Shown: piece by piece, positions 1 through 35,478 of the stretch | Position numbering within the stretch: position 1 is the stretch's first letter | How the letters are laid out: every line of letters starts with the position of its first letter | Origin: a virus | Taxonomy: Duplodnaviria > Heunggongvirae > Uroviricota > Caudoviricetes | DNA length: 40,622 nucleotides | Reading direction: 5' to 3' (one strand) | IMG/VR virus record: IMGVR_UViG_2534682002_000024 | Notes under the pieces: generated by a model | Databases searched by the model: none | Seen by the model: the letters and a program-made list of their open reading frames with translations, nothing else | What the model was told of the DNA's origin: nothing | Position numbers and translations under genes: made by a program

Positions 1-1251
1 CTACGCTAAACCAATAAAGAACCCGGCAATGGTGGCACTCATCAGGTTAGAAAGTGTCGCCGCCGCCAGCGCGCGTAAACCAAGCTGGGCGATTTCCGGC
101 GCACGGTGTGGCGCAACCGCAGAAAACGCCCCCACCACCACCCCGATAGAACCAAAGTTAGCGAAACCGCACAACGCGAAGGAAATAATCGCCACGGTTT
201 TAGCATCCAGAGTGCCAGCCGTTTGCAGATAGGGTGAGAAATTGAGATAAGCGACAAATTCATTTATTGCCAGTTTCTGTCCAATCAAACTCCCGGCAAG
301 ATTCGCATCACTCCAGTCAACACCCATTACCCACGCCAGTGGGGCCAGCAGATAACCTACAATGGACTCCAGCGAGGCATGTTCAAAACCAAACCAGCCG
401 CCAACGCCGCCGATAATACCGTTAATTAACGCAATGATGGCGACGAATGCCATCACTACTGTCGCCACACCTGCGGCGATTTTCAGCCCGGTCATTGCCC
501 CTGTCGCGGCGGCTTCAATAATGCTTTTTGGCGGTGTTTCGGTGAAAGAGAGGTTATTAAAAGAAACCTGCGAAGATTCCGTAGCCGGGCTTAGCAGGCG
601 GGCAAACAAGATCCCCCCGGGGATCGCCATTAACGATGCCGCCAGCAAATATTCCACAGGCACGCCCAGTGCGGCATAACCAATCATTGTCGAACCAGCA
701 ATCGAGGCCATGCCGCTACAAATCGCTGTAAATAATTCATTGCGATTCAGCCGATCGATAAAGGGCTTCACAATCGCCGGAATTTCGTTTTGCCCGAGGA
801 AAATGGTAGTGACCGCGACGAATGACTCAATCTTGCTGATATTTAATGCTTTCTGGAATATACCGCCGAGAATGCGAATTAAAATCCCCATCACACCGAT
901 GTAGTAGAGAATACTCACCAGTGCAGTGACGAAGATAATTGCCGGTAATACCCTGAAACCAAAGATAAATCCTGCGCCATCAAATAAGGTGTCCATTTTC
1001 GGTCCGACCAGAGAACCGAAGATAAATGCGCTACCCGCGTCGCTGTACGCCATCACTTTATGCACACCAAAAGCGACTTTTTCAGCGACCCAACGCCCTG
1101 GCGGTAACCAAAGCATAATGCCGCCAATCACGACCTGTAACACTAACGCCGCGCCAACGGTACGCAGGCTGATCTTCTTCTTGTTTACTGACAGTAAAAA
1201 CGCAATCGTCAGCAATACCACCATTCCCAGAACACTTCTCATGACATCCAT
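1..1251 (-). CDS. NupC-family concentrative nucleoside transporter (host gene, 3' end runs off window start)
   Basis: 416-aa multi-pass membrane ORF whose N-terminus MDVMRSVLGMVVLL and overall profile match enterobacterial CNT transporters (NupX/PsuT type); recognised from memory, paralog not resolved. Confidence 0.85.
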   Translation of the reverse strand: MDVMRSVLGMVVLLTIAFLLSVNKKKISLRTVGAALVLQVVIGGIMLWLPPGRWVAEKVAFGVHKVMAYSDAGSAFIFGSLVGPKMDTLFDGAGFIFGFRVLPAIIFVTALVSILYYIGVMGILIRILGGIFQKALNISKIESFVAVTTIFLGQNEIPAIVKPFIDRLNRNELFTAICSGMASIAGSTMIGYAALGVPVEYLLAASLMAIPGGILFARLLSPATESSQVSFNNLSFTETPPKSIIEAAATGAMTGLKIAAGVATVVMAFVAIIALINGIIGGVGGWFGFEHASLESIVGYLLAPLAWVMGVDWSDANLAGSLIGQKLAINEFVAYLNFSPYLQTAGTLDAKTVAIISFALCGFANFGSIGVVVGAFSAVAPHRAPEIAQLGLRALAAATLSNLMSATIAGFFIGLA

Positions 1252-1350
1252 AGTGATTATCTCTTCATGTCATATTGGGCGACGGCTTTCTGCCCATCAG
1301 AAATAGCCAGGCCTGCATCTTGCGATACCGGCCCGGCTTGTTATCAACAC

Positions 1351-1565
1351 TTAATGGGTTTTGATGTAGCCGCGCACGCACTCTTCGACTAAGCCCCAGA
1401 ACCAGTCGCTATCAATAGTGATGCCGACTTTGGTATTAGCGGGCTTGCCAAGAACGCCCAGCTCGTCGCAGACGGTACGCCCATAACAAGGGCCACTGTT
1501 GACGTCCACTTCGACGTACATCTCCTGGGTTTTAATGCCATCAGGGTATAGCGCGGCGATTTTTT
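1351..1565 (-). pseudogene. 3' remnant of a host gene truncated by the prophage; C-terminal pattern resembles nucleoside hydrolase family
   Basis: Track ORF 1351..1581 starts with an ATG that falls inside the putative phage end repeats. The tail (PDG...YVEVDV...GRTVCD...[12 protein letters not shown]) resembles IU-nucleoside hydrolase C-termini and sits beside a nucleoside transporter. Family assignment is from memory only. Confidence 0.4.
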
Positions 1566-3185: not shown

Positions 3186-3431
3186 TTACATCATAGTACC
3201 GTCAGTTCCGGGCTGAACCGGCTCTGGTTGCTCTACGGGTTGAGGCTCATTTTCCGTGCTGTTTTCAGCCGGAGAACGGCCAACCATTCGGGCCAGCACT
3301 TCATCAACATATGCGTCGATTTGTGCCTCAAAATCCTTGCGAACCTGCGCCTTCAGCACGCGGTTCACTTCTTCAGAATAAAGTGCCTGTTTGACAAGCT
3401 CTTCAGTAACCGTGCCTTTAATCTCTGGCAT
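3186..3431 (-). CDS. Hypothetical 81-aa protein with helical N-terminus and acidic proline-rich tail
   Basis: ORF with AAGGAG-like RBS upstream (caaaaggagaatattc-ATG). No recognisable family. Confidence 0.5.
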   Translation of the reverse strand: MPEIKGTVTEELVKQALYSEEVNRVLKAQVRKDFEAQIDAYVDEVLARMVGRSPAENSTENEPQPVEQPEPVQPGTDGTMM

Positions 3432-3466
3432 GAATATTCTCCTTTTGCAGGTATATTGCCCCGTTA

Positions 3467-3649
3467 TCAGAGCGGGGTCGGGTCGTTTGGGGATGACGGT
3501 GCCTGTGCTGTTTTACTGAGTTTTTCAGCTGCCGCATCATCAATTTTACGGCGAATATAATTTCTGATGACCTTATAACCGCCGCTCACCAGATATAACG
3601 CACTGACCACTGCGCAGAAATAAAGCAGCATTGTATGAACGAATGTCAT
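3467..3649 (-). CDS. Hypothetical 60-aa small membrane protein (one N-terminal TM helix, basic C-terminus)
   Basis: Hydrophobic stretch MLLYFCAVVSALYLVSGGY followed by a charged tail. A GC hairpin (CCCCGttatcagaGCGGGG, about 3453-3470) separates it from the next gene. Confidence 0.45.
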   Translation of the reverse strand: MTFVHTMLLYFCAVVSALYLVSGGYKVIRNYIRRKIDDAAAEKLSKTAQAPSSPNDPTPL

Positions 3650-3795
3650 ATAACCTTACCTTTGATATTGACTACATAATTCGTTATCGGGTAAAAACAT
3701 CGAAGCGACTGATAACTACTCCTTCGGTAGTATTTTTATTTTCCTTTATGGGTTAGGTAGCTCCCGCCAGCCGTATCATGACCGGCGGGATTTTT

Positions 3796-5835
3796 TTATT
3801 CTGTTACCGCTTTTTTCACTTCCACCACAATGCTGTCAATCAGCACCGGGTAAGTTGCATTTTTGGTGATATCCGTTACGCGGAGTTTGTCCACCGGGAA
3901 AGTTCCTACTGGTGACTGCGTCAGGGTAAACGCGGCACCATCCTGACCATCAATAACCGGAATAACCTGAAGGCTGTTATTTCCTGCAAAACGGAAGGCC
4001 AGCGTATGCCATTCATTATCAAATGCACCAAAGGTTCCCAGTTTCTGGTTATTTGTTGCCACTTTTGCATTGTGGTACATCACATTCAGGTCTTTTGCGT
4101 CTGTCTGGATGTAGAACGATGCCAGCAGATTATTCCCTGCATCCCCTGTCAGGGTGACACCCTGCGGCAGAGAGGAAACCGGCCAGTAAAGCGCCATGAC
4201 ATACTGGTTTGCCACCAGGTCGCCAGGTACTTTAAAACGACAACTGATTAAACCACCATTTTTCAGCAGTTCAGCACCAGTACCGGCATCATGATCCAGA
4301 TACCAGGATGATTTACCTGTTTCCTTGGTCAGTTTCATTGCCTTACCACCTGTGCCTCCTGCATCACTGATAATTTCAGCTTTACCGCCAGCCGGCTCCC
4401 AGCCCTGGGCTTTCAGATTTCCTTCTGACTCACTGACACGGTAAGACAGCAGTGTTGTGGTTACTGCTTCAGTTTCTGAAGGTGACGGCACTGGTGCTTC
4501 AGTTTCAGAAGATGGAACATCGGCTTTTACTGTGGTTCGCCCTGCATGAGTCAGAACAGCCGTGGCCAGACGGTCAGAAATAATACCCCGGCGCGCCCAG
4601 GCACTGAAATGGCTGGCCCGGTCCGCAGATGTCCAGGTAGCGGCACTGTTACGCCACGTTGAGCCGTAATAACCAATGGATTCAATATCCGGGTCTTCTG
4701 CCGGATTGTTGGTGGGTACATTCACGCCATTTTCATCTGTCATTAATGGAACGAAATGAATGTTTTTATCTGTTTTGTTTTTGTAGCCGCCATAGATTGC
4801 CTGGTATGCTGGTTCATTTTTCTGTTTCCAGAAATACGTGGTATCGCCACAAATCCACGGAACGCCAGCAGCACTGCCACCGGTACACTGTTCCGCCTGT
4901 TCAGCCAGGTCTGCGCGGAATTTTTCCACCATCGCCAGAAACAGCGCAGAATGCTCCGTCGGCTTCGCATCAATATCAAACTCGCCCTGCATCCACACCA
5001 CAGCAAGCAGGCGGTTTTTCGGGTTCTTCGCCAGTGCCGCTTTTGTCCGGCTGATTAAGTCCTTATACAGCGGCTTATCCACACCCCAGCGGGCTGAGTC
5101 CTCTGAAGCACCCGTGCTGTCACTGTACGTGCCGTCAGCACCCGCCGTGAATGCAGAACCACCACGGCAGCAGGGAACCAGCAGAATCCCCGCATCTGCC
5201 GGAATAAACGGCAGCAGTTTTTTGGCAATGTGAAGCCCCTGACCCACGGTGCCATATTGCCCTTTAGCCACATCCGCTTTCGGGTGATTTTTTCCACTCA
5301 TATCCTGCACATCATGCAGACAGTGGTCGGCCAGAATGATGTCGTTATACTGACAGGCTTTACCTCCCGGCGTGACTGTACTGCGACGGGCTAACTGCAT
5401 AATACGCGGTTCGGGGCGGTCATATGTCTCCGGCAGTGGCAGACCTTCACCGTAAGCCATACCGTTTGACTGACCAGCAAGAACCACCACGTAATACCAG
5501 GAAGGGGAGCTGGAAGCAGTTTCATTTCCTGACGGACGGGTATGTGTTTCAGCATTATCCCAGTCTGACGGTTCAGCAGTACCGGCAACATCAGCACTTA
5601 ACGGAATGACCGCACCAATACCCGCTCCGGTAATTTCCACACTCGGATCACCGGATACTGGCCTTACCCACAGGCAATCCCGTGTATTAAAACTGATGAG
5701 ACAGTCAGCAAATGTCATTCCTCCTTTTGTTTCGGCCGGAGGAAAGGGAGCCTCAAGAAATGCCGCTGTACCACCGGAAACTTTAACAGTAAAGTTTCCG
5801 GGCATTGATGATAGTTGAACCCATTTGGACGTCAT
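3796..5835 (-). CDS. 679-aa SGNH/SASA-type carbohydrate esterase with lectin-like beta-sandwich C-terminal domain (cargo gene)
   Basis: VVVLAGQSNGMAYGEG carries the GQSN motif typical of sialate O-acetylesterase-like (SASA/DUF303) SGNH hydrolases. No N-terminal signal peptide. An S/T/P-rich linker precedes a C-terminal region that looks like a concanavalin/laminin-G type domain. It occupies the gin to com-mom interval. Confidence 0.6.
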   Translation of the reverse strand: MTSKWVQLSSMPGNFTVKVSGGTAAFLEAPFPPAETKGGMTFADCLISFNTRDCLWVRPVSGDPSVEITGAGIGAVIPLSADVAGTAEPSDWDNAETHTRPSGNETASSSPSWYYVVVLAGQSNGMAYGEGLPLPETYDRPEPRIMQLARRSTVTPGGKACQYNDIILADHCLHDVQDMSGKNHPKADVAKGQYGTVGQGLHIAKKLLPFIPADAGILLVPCCRGGSAFTAGADGTYSDSTGASEDSARWGVDKPLYKDLISRTKAALAKNPKNRLLAVVWMQGEFDIDAKPTEHSALFLAMVEKFRADLAEQAEQCTGGSAAGVPWICGDTTYFWKQKNEPAYQAIYGGYKNKTDKNIHFVPLMTDENGVNVPTNNPAEDPDIESIGYYGSTWRNSAATWTSADRASHFSAWARRGIISDRLATAVLTHAGRTTVKADVPSSETEAPVPSPSETEAVTTTLLSYRVSESEGNLKAQGWEPAGGKAEIISDAGGTGGKAMKLTKETGKSSWYLDHDAGTGAELLKNGGLISCRFKVPGDLVANQYVMALYWPVSSLPQGVTLTGDAGNNLLASFYIQTDAKDLNVMYHNAKVATNNQKLGTFGAFDNEWHTLAFRFAGNNSLQVIPVIDGQDGAAFTLTQSPVGTFPVDKLRVTDITKNATYPVLIDSIVVEVKKAVTE

Positions 5836-5934
5836 AATAATCAGCCTGTTCCTGAATAAACTGAATTATCATATCCACAGACCGATAAACGCCATTTTGC
5901 GTTAATTCAGTAAAGGCCCAACAAAGAGAGCGTC

Positions 5935-6495
5935 TTATTTTTCCGAAACGCTCGCAGGATAATAACGATAAAGGGTTGAAAGACCGATATCAAAAATAAG
6001 TGCCACCTGTCTTCGACTGACACCCCCGGCCAGTAAACGCCCGACCTGCTCGTATTGTTCCTGCGTGAGACGGCGGGGTCTGCCGCCGGTTCGTCCCCTT
6101 TCACGGGCAGCTGCAAGACCAGCCCGTGTCCGTTCGACAATTAATTCACGCTCCATTTCTGCCAGCGCACCCATTATGTGAAAAAAGAAGCGCCCCATGG
6201 GGGTTGACGTATCAATGTTGTCAGTAAGACTACGAAAATTTATCCCCTGTTGCTGTAATTCATCTGTCAGCGCAACAAGGTGGCGCATACTGCGCCCCAG
6301 CCTGTCCAGTTTCCAGACCATCAGCGTGTCACCGGGTTTTAGTTTCTTCAGTGCCCGCTTCAGTCCCGGCCGCTGTGTCGTTTTACCACTCATTTTGTCT
6401 TCAAAAATCTGCTCACATCCTGCACATTCCAGCGCATTTCTTTGTAAACCGGTGTTCTGGTCATTTGTTGATACGCGTATATAGCCAATCAGCAT
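5935..6495 (-). CDS. gin: Gin/Pin/Hin-family serine DNA invertase
   Basis: MLIGYIRVSTNDQNTGLQRNALECAGCEQIFEDK...WKLDRLGRSMRHL is nearly identical in pattern to Gin/Pin. 186 aa. Transcribed away from the adjacent invertible segment. Confidence 0.9.
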   Translation of the reverse strand: MLIGYIRVSTNDQNTGLQRNALECAGCEQIFEDKMSGKTTQRPGLKRALKKLKPGDTLMVWKLDRLGRSMRHLVALTDELQQQGINFRSLTDNIDTSTPMGRFFFHIMGALAEMERELIVERTRAGLAAARERGRTGGRPRRLTQEQYEQVGRLLAGGVSRRQVALIFDIGLSTLYRYYPASVSEK

Positions 6496-6552
6496 GTATT
6501 TACCTTCCTTAAAAAGAGGTGGAAAAGCCTTTTAAAGTAGATATACGGCATC

Positions 6553-22574: not shown

Positions 22575-22695
22575 ATTGCCTCCGCATAAAGGATGAATAT
22601 AAAATAAACAGGCGGTCAGTGTACGCTTAACTGGTAAAGTCGGTGCCTGCCTCCGGGTGGATCATGTATGCGGGTTCGACCCCCGCCACTGACCG

Positions 22696-29363: not shown

Positions 29364-29826
29364 CCGCCGAACGGCGGGCCTCAAGGCCGGGGAGTTTCAC
29401 CCCCTTTGAATAAATCCAGCGGATATACTGCTTACAGGACGCGGGCATCTGCCCGGCATTGATCAGGCGCAGAAGCGTGGAGTTGCGGAAGTTCGTTTCA
29501 CCGGCCCAGAAGATCCACGAAGCCAGCGCCACAGTCTGACCACGGGTAAGCGGCACCTGAACACGCCGATCAATGGCCGCAAAGGCCCATTTCATGTCCT
29601 TTTCCAGTAGTTCCAGGCATTCTTCATCCGTCAGGGTCATACCCGGTTTCACATCCGGGCCGGTATGGCCGTAACAGATGGTGGGTGTACCGGTGGGATC
29701 GATATACGTGGAGTTTTCTTTCCCTTCCCAGTAACCGGTGTAATGCGTGGCAATCGTGAACGTCCCGGCACCGGCCAGAACAAGGGCAATCAGCTTTTTA
29801 CGCAGTGGTGCGGGGAGTTTTGGCAT
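29326..29826 (-). CDS. Endolysin, phage lysozyme family with N-terminal signal-anchor-release type hydrophobic segment
   Basis: Hydrophobic segment LIALVLAGAGTFTIA at the N-terminus, then a lysozyme-like body. No holin gene was recognised nearby. Confidence 0.75.
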   Translation of the reverse strand: MPKLPAPLRKKLIALVLAGAGTFTIATHYTGYWEGKENSTYIDPTGTPTICYGHTGPDVKPGMTLTDEECLELLEKDMKWAFAAIDRRVQVPLTRGQTVALASWIFWAGETNFRNSTLLRLINAGQMPASCKQYIRWIYSKGVKLPGLEARRSADEWLCRYDLPKV

Positions 29827-29897
29827 TGTTACGCTGTCTCATGATGTTCTCTGAGTCAGCGTAACGGTGAAGGAAAGGCGGCAGGCTTTGCGGAATA

Positions 29898-30323
29898 TCA
29901 GAAAAGTGGCGGTTGCGTTCTTGCCAGATGCAGACGGCGCTGTTCACGTATGACGGTATAAATCTGGGTTTCTGACATCCGGTAATGGCGGCGAAGGGAT
30001 TCAATTTTCTCGCCCCGGTCCCAGCGCGAAAATATCTCATTGTTTCGCAGCTCGGCAAAGAGAGATTCCCCGACCGGCAGGTAATAACCCCGTCCGCCCA
30101 TATAGGCTGCCTGAGCCGCAGCCACCTTGCGTGCCAGTTTACCGGCCAGTACCGGCTCAATCCCCTGACGCTGAAGTTCTGCGCCGGTGACTTCAACCAG
30201 TTCTGACAGGGTCCGCGGCCAGTTCTTTTTGAGAACATCATCAGGGATGTCATCAAGGCGGTCGATAAGGGCGTGCAGTTGCTCACTGTCACCACCAAAC
30301 ATGCTCATCTGAGTTTCTGCCAT
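29898..30323 (-). CDS. Mor/C-family transcriptional activator
   Basis: 141 aa; the C-terminal part (GRGYYLP ... IYTVIREQRRLHLARTQPPLF) parallels Mu Mor as I recall it. Whether it is the Mor or the C equivalent is not resolved. Confidence 0.7.
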   Translation of the reverse strand: MAETQMSMFGGDSEQLHALIDRLDDIPDDVLKKNWPRTLSELVEVTGAELQRQGIEPVLAGKLARKVAAAQAAYMGGRGYYLPVGESLFAELRNNEIFSRWDRGEKIESLRRHYRMSETQIYTVIREQRRLHLARTQPPLF

Positions 30324-30354
30324 ATCAGCCTCCGGTTCTCACGTTCCCGGTAAG

Positions 30355-30386
30355 TTTAAAATAAAAATCCCGCGTTGTGGCGGGAT
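30355..30386 (-). terminator. Intrinsic terminator downstream of gemA-like gene
   Basis: Hairpin ATCCCGC-gttgtg-GCGGGAT (30367-30386) followed on the minus strand by a T-rich run (TTTTTATTTTAAA). Confidence 0.5.
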
Positions 30387-30392
30387 TTGGGG

Positions 30393-30902
30393 TTAACGGG
30401 GAAGTGATTTTTCATACTGCCTGCAAACGGCGTCATACCCCATCAGCGTGCGTTCGGGCATTCCCATCGCGGCCAGCATTTTGCGGCGGTGCCATCGCTT
30501 GAGACGCTCCAGCACATCTGAGGCCAGGGCGGGGTGTTGCTCCAGCCACTGCCAGTTTGCCACACCTTCGCCGCCGTTCTGCGCGGCCGTCTGCGATTTC
30601 ACCCAGCGGTTAAGGGCGGTTTCCGCACCATCGGTGATAAAGCCCTGCCGGAGCATCACCTTCCAGATGGCGCGAATTTTGGCGGTCACCGTACCCGGTT
30701 TTAAGGCCCGGTTAACCGGGTTCTGACGCACTTTAAAACCGCGTTTTTTGAAAACATCCAGCACGCGGGATAACTCATCCGGTGACATATCCCGGCAGCT
30801 GGTTTTGCCGGTGGCTGCCAGCAGCGCGGATGTATAAGTCTCATCATCCAGGGCAAGCTCGCGCTTTGCCACATGAATGGCGGATATCAGTTTTCCTCTC
30901 AT
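30393..30902 (-). CDS. GemA-like protein (Mu gp16 family)
   Basis: 169 aa; sits immediately upstream of the Mor/C-type gene as gemA does in Mu. Confidence 0.65.
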   Translation of the reverse strand: MRGKLISAIHVAKRELALDDETYTSALLAATGKTSCRDMSPDELSRVLDVFKKRGFKVRQNPVNRALKPGTVTAKIRAIWKVMLRQGFITDGAETALNRWVKSQTAAQNGGEGVANWQWLEQHPALASDVLERLKRWHRRKMLAAMGMPERTLMGYDAVCRQYEKSLPR

Positions 30903-31195
30903 ACCGTATTTACCTTTTTACGGACATGGAAAGCCTTTTCTGCCTCATCCCACCGGGCATGGTGTGTTGGTGGAATAATCATTATGTGCCAGCCATCTCT
31001 GGTTGTTATCCGGCAGAAAAATTCACCGCTATATAACACAATGGCCTGCTGAATGAGCGCATCAGCCGCCCGTTCAACCGGATGTCTTTTATCAAAAAAG
31101 CAGATGATTTTTCGACATAACCACCGGGTAATAACAAATGCGCCGAAAAAGGATGTGATATATAAGCACCAGAACAACAGAGAACTATTGTCCAT
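30899..31195 (-). CDS. Hypothetical membrane protein (one N-terminal TM helix)
   Basis: 98-aa ORF; hydrophobic segment LLFWCLYITSFFGAFVI. Confidence 0.45.
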   Translation of the reverse strand: MDNSSLLFWCLYITSFFGAFVITRWLCRKIICFFDKRHPVERAADALIQQAIVLYSGEFFCRITTRDGWHIMIIPPTHHARWDEAEKAFHVRKKVNTV

Positions 31196-31382
31196 TATCT
31201 TTCTCCTTATTCACTCTTCTGCGGCATTCGGCACAGTCATCAGGGCTTTCAAATGTATCCGGCTCGCGATTATGAGCCAGATATAACCACCGTCCACATA
31301 TACTGATATTTTCGCCTGTTTTAAAAAAATGATGCTTCCTGGCCATTAGTGGCCGCGCCCATCCAGCGGGTAGACTATTCAT
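31185..31382 (-). CDS. Hypothetical 65-aa protein with possible Cys-based metal-binding motif
   Basis: Short ORF in the co-oriented early operon, containing ICGRW ... DDCAEC. Confidence 0.4.
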   Translation of the reverse strand: MNSLPAGWARPLMARKHHFFKTGENISICGRWLYLAHNREPDTFESPDDCAECRRRVNKEKDNGQ

Positions 31383-31710
31383 TTGCTTTATCCTCCATGC
31401 TGGACAGAATCATATGTATTAATGTCGGGCGTGGAGATATACGCATTTCATTAAGCGTCTGAAGGGCAGCAACAGCTGCCTGTTTATCGGTGCCTTTGGC
31501 AATTTCAGCAAGAGAATGCACAATCCATAACGGGCTTAACGCTACGGCTGAATGCAGAATCATGTCATCCATAATAATTTCTGGCATATCCCGTTTGTCA
31601 CATTCTTTATCCATAAAAGAAACGATTTTTTCTGCATCTTCCGGTTTCATGCCTCCGGCGATGAGAATTTTACGATATTCATAAGACGATCTTAATTCAA
31701 TACTCATCAT
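31375..31710 (-). CDS. Hypothetical early protein
   Basis: 111-aa ORF in the co-oriented early operon. Confidence 0.45.
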   Translation of the reverse strand: MMSIELRSSYEYRKILIAGGMKPEDAEKIVSFMDKECDKRDMPEIIMDDMILHSAVALSPLWIVHSLAEIAKGTDKQAAVAALQTLNEMRISPRPTLIHMILSSMEDKANE

Positions 31711-31722
31711 TCACCTGCCTGT

Positions 31723-32115
31723 TTAATCAGTTTCCAGTGCTTTGCTACGGGCAACAGCCTCACACTCAAAAAATACCGACTCCGGCACACGCTCCTTTAA
31801 TTCACGAACAAGAAAATCATTAACGAGTTCATGACGTCTTATATTTCTTTCCTTTTCCTCCTGGCGCAATACAGCAAGGCGGTATTCAACAGTCCGGCGT
31901 TGTTTCTGAAAGACAGCTAGTGCTTTTCTGGCAGAGTTACGCCATGTATCATCGCCACAGGGTTCGTATTCAAGCTGAAATTTAATCTCTTCAATGGTTT
32001 CTTTTATTTTTGCCAGCAAGCTAAGACAGTCGCTGATTGTCTTCAGTTTTTCATTATCAATATAACTTCTCACGCATTCACCTCCCGTCATTCCGGTAAA
32101 GCTGAAATATGGCAC
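31723..32115 (-). CDS. Hypothetical early protein (coiled-coil); start may be an internal ATG
   Basis: 130-aa ORF in the co-oriented early operon. Confidence 0.4.
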   Translation of the reverse strand: MPYFSFTGMTGGECVRSYIDNEKLKTISDCLSLLAKIKETIEEIKFQLEYEPCGDDTWRNSARKALAVFQKQRRTVEYRLAVLRQEEKERNIRRHELVNDFLVRELKERVPESVFFECEAVARSKALETD

Positions 32116-32399
32116 CAGTGCGTCACCTGTCCGTCCTCATCTTCAAGGCAGGCTCCGGTTTCTTCATCAATAAAAAAGCCTTCATACCCCATATGGCCGA
32201 TGCGCAGTTCCTGTTGGTCACCATACTGAACAATCAGCACGACAGCCTCCATATCAGGCGGAAATGCGTCATCCAGTGAATGCCAGGGATAACCGCGCAA
32301 ATCCCCGAAATAAACACCGGTCAGCGTTCCGCCACAAACCGACATTCCGGCGACACATACCAGAGGCTCGTCTGATTCAACAAATAATGTCGTTATCAT
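32088..32399 (-). CDS. Hypothetical strongly acidic early protein (candidate DNA mimic)
   Basis: 103 aa with about 19 Asp/Glu against 2 Arg and no Lys, clustered as DEETGACLEDEDGQ; translationally coupled to the upstream gene. Confidence 0.45.
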   Translation of the reverse strand: MITTLFVESDEPLVCVAGMSVCGGTLTGVYFGDLRGYPWHSLDDAFPPDMEAVVLIVQYGDQQELRIGHMGYEGFFIDEETGACLEDEDGQVTHWCHISALPE

Positions 32400-32947
32400 G
32401 GCATTAACTCCCGTAATACAACATCTTCGGCAGTCCGGCGATGGTGATAAATAAAATTCACCGTACTCTCGGATAATTCAAATTTCTCGCCTATTTCCCG
32501 GAAGGTAAGACGTCGTGGTGATTCAGCATCCCGTAATTCACGAATAAGATGAACATCATCATCAGGTATACGGGTGAAGGGCAGCAACTCTCCGTATTTT
32601 TTCATGCTTACGCCAATATATCGCGCCCGTTTGTGGACAGAATCCCGGTCTCGCCCCAGATATTCTCCTATTTGCTTACCGGTCATCGTTCTGGCATTTT
32701 TTCGGATAAATTTATCTTCATCATGTTTAAATCTTGGACGTTTGCATTTGAGCAACTCCGGGTAAGTACCGCGTAATAAAACAATCCGGTTATGTACACC
32801 CCAGAAACTTCTTTTTACCCTGACAGCAATATCCTTAACCGGGGTGGATGGATAAAGCGCAATCAGCAGTGCATCTTCTTCAGGTGTCCACGCACGGACA
32901 TGAGCGGGTGCACGGCCTTTTCGCCCCATGGGTTGTAAAATCATCAT
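32396..32947 (-). CDS. Hypothetical early protein with SANT/Myb-like WTPEEDALL motif and C-terminal HTH-like segment
   Basis: 183-aa ORF containing AWTPEEDALLIALY and LTFREIGEKFELSESTV. Confidence 0.45.
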   Translation of the reverse strand: MMILQPMGRKGRAPAHVRAWTPEEDALLIALYPSTPVKDIAVRVKRSFWGVHNRIVLLRGTYPELLKCKRPRFKHDEDKFIRKNARTMTGKQIGEYLGRDRDSVHKRARYIGVSMKKYGELLPFTRIPDDDVHLIRELRDAESPRRLTFREIGEKFELSESTVNFIYHHRRTAEDVVLRELMP

Positions 32948-32950
32948 ACA

Positions 32951-33466
32951 TCACCCCCTGACTCGCTTTTCAGCAGCATAAAACTCATCAGACAGAATTT
33001 CGGTCATTTTCTGTTTTGCGGGTTTTACGCCGCACTGAAGGTAAATCACATCGTCAACGCAGAACCACTCCACAGGGCCAAACAGGATTGCCGAGAAATC
33101 AATACCCAGCCAGAACAACAGGGCATCGGTTCTGGCATACGTGACGGGCGAATATTCACGCCACAGACTGTTAAGTTCGTCAGAGGCAGCGCACAGGGCT
33201 TTGGGAATACACGATGTGCGCGGCGTGCAGCTCCAGCCATTCGACGCAGTCGGTTTTCGCCATAAGTCGCGATGAAAAGGATATTTGTTATCCGTAAAAC
33301 GCAGTCCTTTAAAATAAAAACCATTGATACCGGATACAAATACCGACCGACAATCAACATTCAGCACGGCCTCAAGACGTTTTGCCTCATCCTTAACTTT
33401 CTTGTAGTCCTGCTGGTATTTTTGCCACGCAGCCAGCGCGGAAGGGTTTGATGTTTTAAAGAACAT
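32951..33466 (-). CDS. Hypothetical early protein
   Basis: 171-aa ORF in operon context. Confidence 0.45.
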   Translation of the reverse strand: MFFKTSNPSALAAWQKYQQDYKKVKDEAKRLEAVLNVDCRSVFVSGINGFYFKGLRFTDNKYPFHRDLWRKPTASNGWSCTPRTSCIPKALCAASDELNSLWREYSPVTYARTDALLFWLGIDFSAILFGPVEWFCVDDVIYLQCGVKPAKQKMTEILSDEFYAAEKRVRG

Positions 33467-33999
33467 TACGCCACCTCCGCAGATATCCCGGCAGGCGCAG
33501 CCGTCCGGTCAACAATCAGGTAACGCAGAACATGTTCGGTGATATTCCAGCCGCTTAAACCGCAGATAATGACACCCAGGCGAATGTCGATATACGCCAT
33601 CACAAACTGGGGCACGCCTTCTTTCATGGCCTGCTCATCAACTTCAGCCACCACATAAACGGTTTCGCAGGTCAGTACGCCCTGAGCAAATTCCCACGCC
33701 ATCGACGGAATATCATGCCCCTCAATCCACGGCAGGGATTTTCTGAAGCTGCACCACTGAACATCATCAGCCGCACCTTCCTGGCTGCATTTGCGACGAA
33801 CCGGCTGCACCGGGCGGGGACGCGGAATATCATAAAAACCGTTACATTCCGTCAGCACCCCGGCATCGACCGCATCACGCAGAAAATAAACCATCGAGGA
33901 TGGCGGCATATTCATTTTTTCAGCCAGAATGCCGCAGGTCAGACGCCCGTAAATACTCAGCCAGTTTTTAACCCCTTCAAGCACTTTTGCATCAATCAT
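33466..33999 (-). CDS. Hypothetical early protein
   Basis: 177-aa ORF in operon context. Confidence 0.45.
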   Translation of the reverse strand: MIDAKVLEGVKNWLSIYGRLTCGILAEKMNMPPSSMVYFLRDAVDAGVLTECNGFYDIPRPRPVQPVRRKCSQEGAADDVQWCSFRKSLPWIEGHDIPSMAWEFAQGVLTCETVYVVAEVDEQAMKEGVPQFVMAYIDIRLGVIICGLSGWNITEHVLRYLIVDRTAAPAGISAEVA

Positions 34000-34002
34000 G
34001 AA

Positions 34003-34545
34003 TTATTCCTCCGTCAGCGCCACATATTCAGAATGTTTAATTTCCTGGCATTCTTCAGGAATACACCCTTTTATTTCCCTGCCATAAGCGCCTACTTTAA
34101 ACACCACGCACAGGGCATCACGGGAGAGCGACGGGGTCCACCAGGAGTCCGTGTTAAACATGGAGGGGATTCTCATTACCCCCAGCTTTTCACAGAGCCA
34201 GACAAGGAAATCAGGACGCTTTCTTAACTCACGTTCAGCGGTTTCAATCATTGCGGCAATCGCCGGACCTTCAGGGCATGACTCATCAGGTCTGGCAATA
34301 AAGCACGGTCCGTCCCCGATAAAAGCCACATCATCGCGCTTACGCCAGCCCGCAGGCAGAGCACCAGAAAAATAAAACTCACTGATTACGTCCATGGCAA
34401 ACGGCTTTAAGCGCAATCCGGCAGCGCCTGTATTTTTCAGTAATGCCCGAAGAATACTGTTGCGTAGCGGTAAAACAGTCTGTTGATATTTGGTGAAATA
34501 TTTATTTGTCTGCACACGGTCTAATTTGAAATAAAAATATGCCAT
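34003..34545 (-). CDS. Hypothetical early protein
   Basis: 180-aa ORF following gam. Confidence 0.45.
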   Translation of the reverse strand: MAYFYFKLDRVQTNKYFTKYQQTVLPLRNSILRALLKNTGAAGLRLKPFAMDVISEFYFSGALPAGWRKRDDVAFIGDGPCFIARPDESCPEGPAIAAMIETAERELRKRPDFLVWLCEKLGVMRIPSMFNTDSWWTPSLSRDALCVVFKVGAYGREIKGCIPEECQEIKHSEYVALTEE

Positions 34546-34642
34546 ATATCCTGTTCCTTATTTTCAGTTTACAGGCGCAGGCAGTCCCCTGACGCGAGCG
34601 CCATAATTAAAACGAAGTGATATTTAATTGATTAATGCGGTG

Positions 34643-35173
34643 TTATTTATTCAGTCCGGCGTCCTGTTCAAAAGGCTCGACATAAAAACTTTCAGCGCCT
34701 TTATTCACCTTAATACCGGCAATCCCTTTCACCGCATCCGGCTCCGCCAGGACCGCTTCCTTGTTCACTTCCTCTTTCGTGCGGATAAAACGCTCAAGGC
34801 CCATACGGCGCAGCATTTCAATCACACCTTCCACATCACGACTGACGCTGCATGATGGATTCCCCAGTCGCCATGACACCGTTCCGGTGGTCAGATTGGC
34901 TGTTTTGGTTTTGCCGCCGTTCGTCAGCTCATCGCGGTTGGTTTTGCACCAGTCCTGAATCCCCTTAAAAAGCACTTTGATTTCTTTTTTAAGGTTTTCA
35001 ATTTGCGGCGTATAACGGGCGGTGATTTCTGCCACTTCATCATTCATCGCCGTTTCCAGCCGCAGCGCCTCTCGCTGAATATCGCCCAGGGTGCGGATAT
35101 CGCGGCTGACTTCTTCGCGGGTCTGCGGTGCAGCCTCGGCTGCGGCCTTTAATTTTGTAACACGTTTAGCCAT
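34643..35173 (-). CDS. gam: Gam-like host-nuclease inhibitor / DNA-end binding protein
   Basis: 176-aa charged helical protein at the Mu gam position; size matches Mu Gam (about 174 aa). Confidence 0.7.
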   Translation of the reverse strand: MAKRVTKLKAAAEAAPQTREEVSRDIRTLGDIQREALRLETAMNDEVAEITARYTPQIENLKKEIKVLFKGIQDWCKTNRDELTNGGKTKTANLTTGTVSWRLGNPSCSVSRDVEGVIEMLRRMGLERFIRTKEEVNKEAVLAEPDAVKGIAGIKVNKGAESFYVEPFEQDAGLNK

Positions 35174-35184
35174 TTTGTTTTTCC

Positions 35185-35478
35185 TTATTGCAGTGTGCCT
35201 GATGCTTTATGCACGCGGTGGCGTTTAATGATGGCATCCGCCCCAAAAGCCTGTACAGATGCCTGAAATTCCGCTGAGAGAAACTGAATAATTACAGGAC
35301 TGTGATACTGGAGAATGCTTGCATAAACGTCACAGAGTGACGTCGGCCTGTTATCCGTATCACGTTCTGTTTTCACATCCACTCCAATCTTTTCATGCAC
35401 TTCAACACTGTCATTGCCTGCCGGTTTTTCGTCATGCGAAACATGCTCAAATTCAAAAATAACGCGTACTTTGCTCAT
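35185..35478 (-). CDS. Hypothetical small early protein, paralog A
   Basis: Start placed at internal ATG 35478 (MSKVRVIFEFEH). N-terminus parallels the adjacent gene. Confidence 0.45.
   Translation of the reverse strand: MSKVRVIFEFEHVSHDEKPAGNDSVEVHEKIGVDVKTERDTDNRPTSLCDVYASILQYHSPVIIQFLSAEFQASVQAFGADAIIKRHRVHKASGTLQ

Follow-up and report, generated by a model that had tools for sequence, protein, structure and literature searches.

A divergent DUF551-type acidic protein and a Myb-like protein encoded by adjacent early genes of a Mu-like Escherichia coli prophage

Introduction

A very acidic protein of 103 residues is encoded in the early operon of a Mu-like prophage, directly after a basic protein of 183 residues. 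Two questions are raised by this locus: what is the acidic protein likely to do, and do the two proteins form a pair? A preliminary description had read the acidic protein as a DNA mimic of the anti-restriction or anti-defence type, and its neighbour as a SANT/Myb-like protein with an HTH-like C-terminus, and had implied that the two are functionally paired. Both proteins are followed up here within the window, i.e., the whole stretch of DNA analysed (40,622 nucleotides, IMG/VR record IMGVR_UViG_2534682002_000024). All the coordinates given below are those of the window, and all the features described lie on the minus strand.

DUF551 (PF04448 / IPR007539), the domain on which this analysis converges, is described as portable, being fused to proteins of several kinds, HTH transcription factors included, and the C-terminal domains of Ea22, among them the DUF551 variant, are mostly acidic (PMC10834534). 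It is common in the early accessory regions of phages. The available parts of the literature that names the domain give no mechanism for it, and PDB searches turned up no solved DUF551 structure.

Results

The window and its early region

E. coli chromosomal prophages match the window with 100% identity, and its genes follow the full order of Mu, from c/ner/A/B to com/mom. The window is thus a complete Mu-like prophage of E. coli. The landmarks of the early region are, in the direction of transcription, Gam (host-nuclease inhibitor, 34643-35173, Pfam Phage_Mu_Gam E 1.5e-41), a gp11-like gene (33466-33999, PF25754 Gp11_C E 5.7e-41), a gp12-like gene (32951-33466, PF26885 Phage_Mu_Gp12 on an orthologue of identical size), GemA (30393-30902, Pfam GemA E 3.9e-29 and RefSeq) and Mor (29898-30323, RefSeq annotation). 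The genes for the 183-aa and 103-aa proteins are located between gam/gp11/gp12 and gemA/mor, the gp11/gp12-like pair being directly upstream of the former, so that their placement in the Mu semi-essential early region, with Gam on one side and GemA/Mor on the other, is borne out. Neither gene is present in canonical Mu, which has gp13, gp14 and gp15 downstream of gp12. Mu gp14, in a similar slot, was considered as a relative and rejected (hhalign 0.06%).

Judged from their position in the early operon, and by analogy with the early transcript made from Pe in Mu, both genes are presumably active at an early stage of lytic growth. When 29800-35300 was scanned for promoters and terminators, the results remained at chance level, no promoter signal being found ahead of the two genes, and Rfam and ARAGORN gave no match over the window. 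PADLOC, applied to both proteins and seven neighbours, gave no defence-system match except weak ones, i.e., the 183-aa protein with the DNA-binding module of a «homing endonuclease» (E 0.0017) and a 111-aa neighbour with PDC-S72 (E 0.035, chance level).

Both genes are real

The open reading frames of the 183-aa gene (32396-32947) and of the 103-aa gene (32088-32399) have coordinates identical to those of two RefSeq hypothetical proteins, WP_000973026.1 and WP_000633442.1, respectively, for which literature searches returned nothing. The gene calls thus stand as they had been made, and direct reading of the sequence also bears out the junction: the stop of the first gene and the ATG of the second overlap as ATGA (32396-32399). 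A Shine-Dalgarno-like motif of its own, GGGAG (32408-32412), precedes the ATG of the 103-aa gene by 8 nt. It should be noted that most junctions of the early operon are tight (−11 to +15 nt); the ATGA overlap is therefore not special to this pair.

With a dN/dS of 0.11-0.20 for the 103-aa gene and of 0.29 for the 183-aa gene, both are real genes under purifying selection, and both proteins are present in more than 200 complete E. coli genomes, mostly of pathogenic STEC lineages. That the 103-aa frame is a chance or decaying one, functionless and merely of biased composition, is hardly credible. The C-terminus of the window copy is 5-10 residues shorter than those of its relatives and two database copies of the family are fragmentary (P0016 and P0050), which could be taken as decay. 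Against this stand the low dN/dS, full-length homologues down to 26-36% identity, in which the motifs and the genomic slot are retained across several genera, a confident fold prediction (see below) and the Shine-Dalgarno-like motif.

Composition and modules of the acidic protein

The 103-aa protein contains 19 Asp plus Glu and 2 Arg plus Lys, as had been counted previously, leading to a pI of 4.05 and a net charge of about −17. No other product of the 57 annotated CDS in the window is as acidic: it has −0.165 charge per residue, the next one −0.085. The net charge is kept across the family (−11 to −18), and the protein is more acidic than the four DUF551 proteins compared (−5 to −12). Fourteen of its residues, DEETGACLEDEDGQ (78-91, 32127-32168), make up a hairpin or loop of acidic character that lies between the final two strands of the DUF551 domain; acidic residues ahead of (V/I)THW are present in bona fide DUF551 proteins too.

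The protein, assigned to PHROG 6925 (phrog_6925), consists of an N-terminal module of about 36 residues and a divergent DUF551 domain. The N-terminal module (residues 1-36, 32292-32399), outside the DUF551 domain, has conserved G24, D33 and R35 and is shared with phrog_3876, which two members of the 103-aa family (P0070 and P0053) match with residues 1-43. The domain (residues 37-103, 32091-32291) has the pattern W39..L..D..PP ... VTHW..ALPE and is predicted to fold as a small beta-barrel. Apart from E. coli, Salmonella and Serratia, only a few metagenomic Mu-like contigs yielded homologues of the 103-aa protein; judged from this distribution, the family seems specific to Mu-like prophages.

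Assignment to DUF551

The assignment is supported by four independent lines of evidence, i.e., PHROG cross-matches, hhalign, AF2/Foldseek and Pfam. With Pfam, the window protein reaches 13.0 bits (E 0.2; residues 39-96 with profile positions 2-61 of 68), below the gathering cut-off of 22 bits, and the best family member (P0063) 18.2 bits, while control DUF551 proteins score 22.2-41.7 bits, YfdS being at 22.2. DUF551 is nevertheless the sole recurrent Pfam match in the family, always below cut-off. PHROG comparisons point the same way: YfdS matches phrog_6925 with E 7e-13, P0071 and P0072 match it with E 5.6e-5 and 1.1e-4, respectively, and members of the 103-aa family match the DUF551-type phrog_924 and phrog_7704. 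Finally, hhalign aligns the family with four Pfam-verified DUF551 proteins at 95.8% (E 7.7e-9); the 64 aligned columns span residues 37-103.

The motifs agree with this alignment. The domain starts with WHSLDDAFPP (residues 39-48) and ends with VTHWCHISALPE (residues 92-103); T93 and W95 are invariant in the family, and V92, H94 and P102 are nearly so. Both motifs are also found in YfdS, JustaPhage gp9, P0071 and P0072. Four other proteins considered as sources of DUF551 (from HK97, gp37; from ST160, orf11; from Erwinia phage vB_EhrS_59 and from Dickeya phage Setonix) were rejected: they share only the N-terminal module of YfdS and have no DUF551 motif.

The AF2 model, computed from a shallow alignment of 16 sequences that includes no Pfam-DUF551 sequence, has a pLDDT of 82, with values of 70-82 in the N-terminal module, about 72-91 per block of ten residues over 31-100, and 85-91 from residue 41 on. 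Compared by Foldseek with the viral models of BFVD, i.e., with predicted structures only, 38 of the top 50 matches are named DUF551 and the other 12 have no usable name; most have a probability of about 1.0, the best E is 1.5e-3 and the target TM reaches at most 0.82. An earlier run with close homologues only (10 sequences) had given a pLDDT of 52 and was discarded, the distant members raising this value to 82.

Residues 37-103 thus align to the whole domain as found in YfdS of E. coli prophage CPS-53, the C-terminal domain of Ea22 V2 and gp9 of Klebsiella phage JustaPhage, with which the 103-aa protein shares W..(L/V).D..P ... G ... (V/I)THW..P.P, the predicted small beta-barrel fold, acidity and a gene located in the early accessory region of a temperate phage. 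It differs from the other DUF551 proteins by its N-terminal module, which is specific to the family and takes the place of the coiled-coil, enzyme or HTH modules of the others, by the confinement of its family to Mu-like (transposable) prophages, where its slot upstream of gemA is fixed, and, as seen above, by its stronger acidity and a Pfam score under the cut-off (13 vs. 22 bits).

The acidic protein compared with DNA mimics

Like T7 Ocr, ArdA and mimics of the Ugi type, the 103-aa protein is small, has a very low pI and is encoded by an early gene of a mobile element. Its charge density is comparable to that of true DNA mimics, and this counts against the explanation preferred below. Pfam, searched with 11 family members at E <= 10, gave no anti-restriction or DNA-mimic family, NCBIfam and PADLOC gave none for the 103-aa protein, and a PDB sequence search with it gave only chance matches (E about 1). 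No sequence or fold similarity to Ocr or ArdA was detected, and a compact beta-barrel, as predicted, would differ from the elongated B-DNA mimics of helical or alpha/beta fold. Of the preliminary reading as a DNA mimic, the small size and the strong negative charge stand, and the match to Ocr, ArdA or another DNA-mimic family or fold is missing. The structure prediction that had been suggested yields the model with a pLDDT of 82, whose top 50 viral fold matches are DUF551 wherever they are usefully named, none of the named ones being a DNA mimic.

The Myb-like protein

The 183-aa protein is basic (pI 10.0, net charge +12) and matches phrog_323 (PHROG 323) over residues 2-182 with E 6.3e-58. 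The pI is consistent with DNA binding. Profile comparisons resolve the protein into three Myb/SANT-like HTH repeats in tandem; it is a probable DNA-binding protein and is unrelated to the 103-aa protein. Repeat 1 (residues ~17-60, 32768-32899) contains WTPEEDALL (residues 20-28) and has matches below cut-off to Pfam Myb_DNA-binding and Myb_DNA-bind_6 at 19-32. Repeat 2 (residues ~70-116, 32600-32740) aligns to R3 of c-Myb and to the first of the two repeats in Mu gp9. Repeat 3 (residues ~124-172, 32432-32578) corresponds to the HTH-like C-terminus of the preliminary description and has sub-threshold matches to a HTH_AsnC-type model (131-163, 22.6 bits vs. a cut-off of 27) and to Sigma70_r4 (145-167). 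The repeats are related to one another: hhalign gives 98.4% (E 9e-15) for repeat 1 vs. repeat 2 and 78.8% (E 1.7e-5) for repeat 2 vs. repeat 3.

The family profile matches c-Myb R2R3 (1h88_C) with E 3.9e-6, residues 18-105 being aligned to Myb 60-149, as well as B-Myb and other Myb structures. The window protein itself is below the Pfam Myb cut-offs (PF00249, 14.6 bits vs. 24.4; PF13921, 16.1 bits vs. 22.9); a homologue of 184 residues (in locus L023) is above (29.8 vs. 24.4 bits), and several database homologues have a precomputed PF00249. The reading as a SANT/Myb-like protein with a further HTH is supported by the c-Myb match, by this homologue and by the three internal repeats. As in c-Myb R2R3 and Myb/SANT proteins, HTH repeats of about 45-50 residues follow in tandem, starting with W-x-x-E-E-D, and the match to R2R3 covers two consecutive repeats; unlike in c-Myb, the protein is a bacterial/phage one, the regularly spaced tryptophans are kept only in part and repeat 3 is nearer to sigma-70 region 4 and AsnC-type HTH models.

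The protein is related to Mu gp9 (E8, Mup09), which is annotated in the phage record as «transcriptional regulator, D5-like»: BLASTP gives E 5e-10 and 31% identity between residues 66-166 and gp9 5-94. Both proteins belong to PHROG 323 and are encoded by early-region genes of Mu type, and the 183-aa protein is a three-repeat relative of gp9. Indeed, gp9 has two repeats and its gene is located upstream of gam, whereas in the 183-aa protein a further Myb-like repeat, the one with WTPEEDALL, is added at the N-terminus, and the gene of this protein lies downstream of gp12. Many database entries name homologues of the 183-aa protein AsnC/Lrp. The sole likeness with these regulators is the sub-threshold AsnC-type match in the C-terminal part; since no effector-binding (RAM) domain is matched in Pfam and the architecture is different, this family label is misleading.

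The two genes occur independently

In five of the nine distinct contexts shown (L014, L015, L016, L021 and L024), the DUF551 family has no Myb-like gene with it. In Serratia, in other Mu-like contigs and in one relative of 83% identity, the 103-aa family directly follows gp12 or gp11. Conversely, P2-like phages carry the Myb-like family ahead of gpA, and there the next gene is either the gpA-type replication gene (L018 and L019) or a 76-residue open reading frame (Shae_phiSM); these neighbours were judged by their size, none being of about 100 residues. Conserved co-occurrence, as in a module of the acr-aca kind or of an inhibitor and its partner, was thus not found among the relatives compared. 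When the window is compared with loci L002 and L003, the Myb-like gene is 70% identical and the adjacent DUF551 gene 93-96%.

Since each gene is found without the other, the two are separate, independently exchangeable cassettes and not a two-gene system; the functional pairing that had been implied is contradicted by the gene context. A Rosetta-stone fusion of a Myb-like module with DUF551, suspected in Klebsiella phage LASTA, was rejected, as the Myb-like match is a separate gene of 107 aa, distinct from the DUF551 protein of 244 aa.

Discussion

Taken as a whole, the results are explained best, and with moderate confidence, by two independent early cassettes, one Myb-like and one of DUF551 type, the latter encoding a protein-binding host-modulation factor. 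The acidic protein would most likely act stoichiometrically during early development, as a module that binds a host, defence or phage protein and covers a basic surface of it, possibly one that binds nucleic acids. It would then be an accessory host-modulation factor and not a classical DNA mimic of the Ocr/ArdA type. Our best guess, which we infer solely from the fold, the charge and the modular distribution, is that it has a host or defence protein as its binding partner and modulates that protein. A narrower proposal, stoichiometric inhibition of a host defence or DNA-transaction protein, perhaps by an electrostatic nucleic-acid decoy whose beta-barrel scaffold would have no counterpart among the known DNA mimics, is rather unlikely. 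The Myb-like protein would most likely be an accessory regulator that recognises specific DNA sites.

Other explanations lead elsewhere. A dedicated partnership, in which the acidic protein serves the Myb-like protein as anti-factor, chaperone or charge-matched inhibitor in a module like the acr-aca or antirepressor pairs, would fit the adjacency and the ATGA overlap, the complementary charges (−17 vs. +12), the presence of the pair also in Salmonella-type prophages (L023) and the fusion of DUF551 to HTH transcription factors in the literature (PMC10834534). We consider it very improbable: the DUF551 family does without the Myb-like gene in the five contexts mentioned, the Myb-like gene of P2-like phages has no protein of similar size alongside, the divergence of the two genes is mosaic, and tight overlaps are found operon-wide with no promoter signal ahead of the pair. 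A titration of type I restriction enzymes, or of other DNA-binding defence proteins, by a DNA mimic early in infection draws on the extreme acidity of the whole family, on the small size, on an early accessory region that also contains Gam, and on the early-region gene E6/Mup07 (gnarl2) of Mu, for which an action on the host O-antigen is reported (bioRxiv 10.1101/2023.04.06.535777); we regard it as improbable.

The 103-aa protein could also serve phage functions in the nucleotide pool or in replication, as their accessory or targeting subunit, and not inhibit a host or defence protein. Several associations of DUF551 speak for this: the L023 orthologue is overlapped by the gene of a 356-aa MazZ-like dATP/dGTP pyrophosphohydrolase (PF04447, E 1.6e-45); yfdS directly follows and overlaps yfdR, which encodes an HD-domain 5'-deoxynucleotidase; yfdS or yfdT, together with yfdQR, is required to suppress the over-initiation of hda-185 (PMC4776307); and DUF551 is reported on a MazZ-type pyrophosphohydrolase (PMC10834534). 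A 130-aa open reading frame downstream in the window was considered as a relative of the L023 MazZ-like protein and rejected, the two being unrelated on comparison. No nucleotide-metabolism gene flanks the DUF551 gene in the window, L014-L016, L021 or L024, and the associations could mean no more than that mobile cassettes gather in early accessory regions; this role is thus doubtful.

Two «hypothetical proteins» can now be annotated as a divergent DUF551-domain protein and a triple Myb-like HTH protein akin to Mu gp9. The present findings will not surprise phage specialists; a defence-system target, if true, would be of real interest. If the inhibitor or decoy reading were true, it would give a first molecular function for DUF551, with its Ea22 variants, YfdS and fusions of MazZ type. 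In this respect, a very small, stand-alone and highly acidic DUF551 protein in the genetically tractable Mu system would offer a handy entry to the binding target of the domain.

Genomic context of the gene pair

Over the 1.8 kb surrounding the two genes, several E. coli strains, mainly STEC isolated from humans and cattle, carry chromosomal DNA with 100% identity; 232 of the 5,426 complete E. coli genomes contain this region. RefSeq annotation of the whole window reveals a Mu-like prophage, complete and encoded on the minus strand. The repressor comes first, followed by the ner-like HTH gene, the MuA transposase, the MuB ATPase, small early genes and Gam, then about 10 «hypothetical» genes, GemA (gp16), Mor and the lysis genes; head and tail genes, the invertase and com/mom complete the order. 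Pfam families found at the locus are Gam (E = 1.5e-41), Gp11_C (5.7e-41) and GemA (3.9e-29), with Kil and Phage_Mu_Gp12 found additionally at an orthologous locus. The Mu-like order and these landmarks thus place the pair between gp12 and gemA, i.e., in the Mu-type semi-essential early region, as had been proposed in the preliminary description. Canonical Mu is devoid of both genes. Mu gp14, which occupies a comparable slot, was considered as a counterpart of the 103-aa protein and is unrelated to it.

RefSeq gives identical coordinates for the 183-aa ORF (32396-32947, minus strand, WP_000973026.1) and the 103-aa ORF (32088-32399, minus strand, WP_000633442.1). The stop codon of the former overlaps the ATG of the latter (ATGA), with GGGAG located 8 nt upstream of this ATG. 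However, most junctions in the early operon lie between -11 and +15 nt (wider gaps follow the transposase gene, gam and gemA), thus the overlap is no sign of a special link: of the coupling described previously the ATGA junction is retained, but as a habit of the operon. No promoter-like or terminator-like signal above chance was found inside the pair or just upstream. Comparison with E. coli relatives shows purifying selection on both genes, with dN/dS of 0.11-0.20 (103-aa gene) and 0.29 (183-aa gene).

Other features of the prophage can be mentioned. At a second ATGA junction (32088-32091), the TGA of the 103-aa gene overlaps an ATG (32091-32089) that is in frame with the following ORF, for which RefSeq retains instead a GTG start at 32073. 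Between gemA and mor (30365-30388, minus strand) lies a strong hairpin resembling a terminator, with a T-run after a 9-bp stem that includes 5 G-C pairs; the early transcript may end here, or transcription may be attenuated before mor. RefSeq annotates a «tRNA-OTHER» at 22615-22694 (plus strand), between the virion-morphogenesis and head-morphogenesis genes; over the entire window, ARAGORN found no tRNA or tmRNA and no Rfam family reached its gathering score. Cargo genes (3198-5847, minus strand; a 679-aa DUF6645 protein, a DUF1378 protein and a DUF826 protein) are located between the invertase (5947-6507) and com/mom (1687-2578); canonical Mu is not known to carry anything comparable at this place. 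Just beyond the mom end, an IS66-family element (46-1559, plus strand) comprises the accessory gene tnpB and a frameshifted ISEc22-like transposase.

Acidic protein

The extreme acidity reported for the 103-aa protein is real: it contains 19 Asp or Glu and 2 Lys or Arg (pI 4.05; residues 78-91 are DEETGACLEDEDGQ). Among the 57 annotated proteins of the window, no other comes close to its acidity: it has -0.165 charge per residue, against -0.085 for the second most acidic. This acidity is conserved, since all relatives have a net charge of -11 to -18. It must be added that the protein ends (at ALPE) 5-10 residues before its relatives, whose extra tail is acidic.

The protein belongs to phrog_6925 (unknown function; E = 5e-52) and to no Pfam, NCBIfam or PADLOC family at the usual thresholds. 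As judged from sequence searches its family is very small: 16 clusters, from E. coli or Salmonella only, were obtained by a word-indexed search of 5.8 billion proteins, and only a few distant full-length relatives (98-117 aa) were gained when 1.84 billion cluster representatives were searched exhaustively with a profile.

The C-terminal two thirds of the alignment display W-x-x-L-x-D-x-x-P-P ... VTHW...LPE, i.e., a DUF551 signature. At relaxed thresholds DUF551 is the sole recurrent Pfam family, with scores (13 bits for the 103-aa protein, at most 18.2 in relatives) below the cut-off of 22 bits. The relationship is found in both directions. E. coli YfdS, which is above the Pfam DUF551 cut-off, matches phrog_6925 through residues 46-117 (E = 7e-13), and two further Pfam-verified DUF551 proteins match it at about 1e-4; conversely, distant family members match phrog_924 and phrog_7704, the PHROGs best matched by verified DUF551 proteins. 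Profile-profile comparison with four verified DUF551 proteins gives a probability of 95.8% (E = 7.7e-9, 64 columns), residues 37-103 covering the whole DUF551 domain. The first 36 residues or so form a separate module, through which distant members match phrog_3876.

Structure prediction, proposed earlier as a check of DNA mimicry, returned matches to the DUF551-type fold. The AlphaFold2 model, built from 16 family sequences of which none is a Pfam-level DUF551 protein, has a pLDDT of 82 (means of 85-91 in 10-residue blocks over residues 41-100). Among the top 50 Foldseek matches in predicted viral structures, 38 are named «DUF551 domain-containing protein» (probability about 1.0, target TM up to 0.82) and 12 have no usable name. 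CHAP-like matches were also considered; a hydrolase reading was rejected, the candidate Cys and His being not conserved in distant relatives. The 103-aa protein is thus a new, previously unlabelled member of the DUF551 superfamily, ordinary in kind.

Myb-like protein

The 183-aa protein is basic (pI 10.0, net charge +12) and matches phrog_323 («transcriptional regulator, D5-like», E = 6e-58). Sub-threshold Pfam matches are Myb (residues 19-32) and AsnC-type and sigma-70 region 4 HTH (residues 131-167). A profile of 15 homologues matches the c-Myb R2R3 DNA-binding domain across two consecutive repeats (E = 3.9e-6), as well as B-Myb and other Myb structures, and a Salmonella-type homologue exceeds the Pfam Myb cut-off (29.8 vs. 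24.4 bits). The family alignment, split in thirds, reveals three homologous repeats (R1 vs. R2 98.4%, R2 vs. R3 78.8%). The initial assignment as SANT/Myb-like plus HTH is correct; more precisely, the protein consists of three tandem Myb-like HTH repeats.

Residues 66-166 align to Mu gp9/E8 (99 aa) with 31% identity (E = 5e-10). The latter is a two-repeat early protein, of which the 183-aa protein is a three-repeat relative; Mu itself (Mup09, comparison locus L005:1483-1782) thus encodes a predicted Myb-like tandem-HTH early protein. Many homologues are named «AsnC family protein» in databases; this name is not retained, since no effector domain is present and the sole AsnC-type match is the sub-threshold C-terminal HTH. 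The 183-aa protein is a new, previously unlabelled Myb-like HTH member of PHROG 323, related to Mu gp9. Mycobacteriophages have these Myb-like repeats too, next to or inside genes for methylases and HNH endonucleases.

Independence of the two genes

Members of the acidic family, distant or close, are always found in Mu-like prophages, shortly upstream of gemA. Five contexts (Serratia locus L014, loci L015, L016 and L021, and an 83%-identical relative in L024) lack the Myb-like gene, the acidic gene directly following gp12, gp11 or other genes. Conversely, the Myb-like family occurs in P2-like phages upstream of replication gene A (Citrobacter phage Shae_phiSM; loci L018-L020), where no protein of similar size lies beside it, neighbours being set against the acidic family by size only. 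Between the window and two E. coli loci (L002:5001-5552 and L003:5001-5552), the Myb-like proteins are just 70% identical and the adjacent acidic genes 93-96% identical, which marks a mosaic boundary between independently exchanged cassettes. At the sequence level this indicates a probable single-gene allelic replacement of the Myb-like gene by recombination. The two genes are independent of each other and not a unit; a role of the acidic protein as dedicated partner of the Myb-like protein is accordingly improbable.

In two P2-like prophages (L018:2752-4564 and L019:2752-4564), a Dam-type methyltransferase (PF02086) and a 109-aa ORF closely precede the Myb-like homologue, and gene A follows it immediately. 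In Serratia and in one Mu-like prophage of metagenomic origin, homologous proteins of 68-70 aa (L014:6321-6527, L015:6345-6557) are encoded after the DUF551-like gene; they bear a signal of lipoprotein type (…LLVSACG… / …LFVSSCG…), and no counterpart was observed in the window.

Possible roles

The DNA-mimic anti-restriction role suggested in the preliminary description is not supported. No match to Ocr, ArdA or any further anti-restriction family emerged from the sequence searches, and the suggestion was based on amino-acid composition. DUF551 proteins are likewise acidic (net charge -5 to -12 in four examples), and in verified domains acidic residues recur just ahead of the (V/I)THW strand. 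Ea22 C-terminal domains, DUF551 variant included, are predominantly acidic, and DUF551 is a portable domain carried by varied partners (PMC10834534); neither this study nor PMC4776307 assigns it a function. Since it is conserved and typical of DUF551, the acidity is a trait shared by the family of this uncharacterised interaction-type domain; a true DNA mimic is unlikely. Slightly less so, though still doubtful, is a role as accessory factor to enzymes of the nucleotide pool or of replication. In its favour, yfdS adjoins yfdR (YfdS follows YfdR, an HD-domain nucleotidase), yfdQRS genetics are described (PMC4776307), and DUF551 is reported on a MazZ-type pyrophosphohydrolase (PMC10834534). Moreover, in a Salmonella-type Mu-like prophage contig (L023:3326-4396; Logan SRR14165170), the gene of a 356-aa mosaic protein with a MazZ-like dATP/dGTP pyrophosphohydrolase domain (PF04447, E = 1.6e-45, residues 147-241) overlaps the 3' end of the DUF551-like gene. 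Taken together, the contig, the enzyme fusions and the YfdR-YfdS pair suggest that DUF551 may be connected with nucleotide metabolism. A non-functional ORF, for a gene under purifying selection, is hardly conceivable.

The reading preferred here is that of a divergent DUF551 protein, a classification held with high confidence. Both genes would be transcribed with the early operon; the acidic protein would act as a small protein-binding module occupying the basic surface of some protein of the host, of a defence system or of the phage, and the Myb-like protein would bind specific DNA as an accessory regulator. This binding mechanism is far less secure than the classification, and the two taken together are only somewhat favoured. 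If the 103-aa protein inhibits a defence system, this would be the first function for a widespread phage domain.
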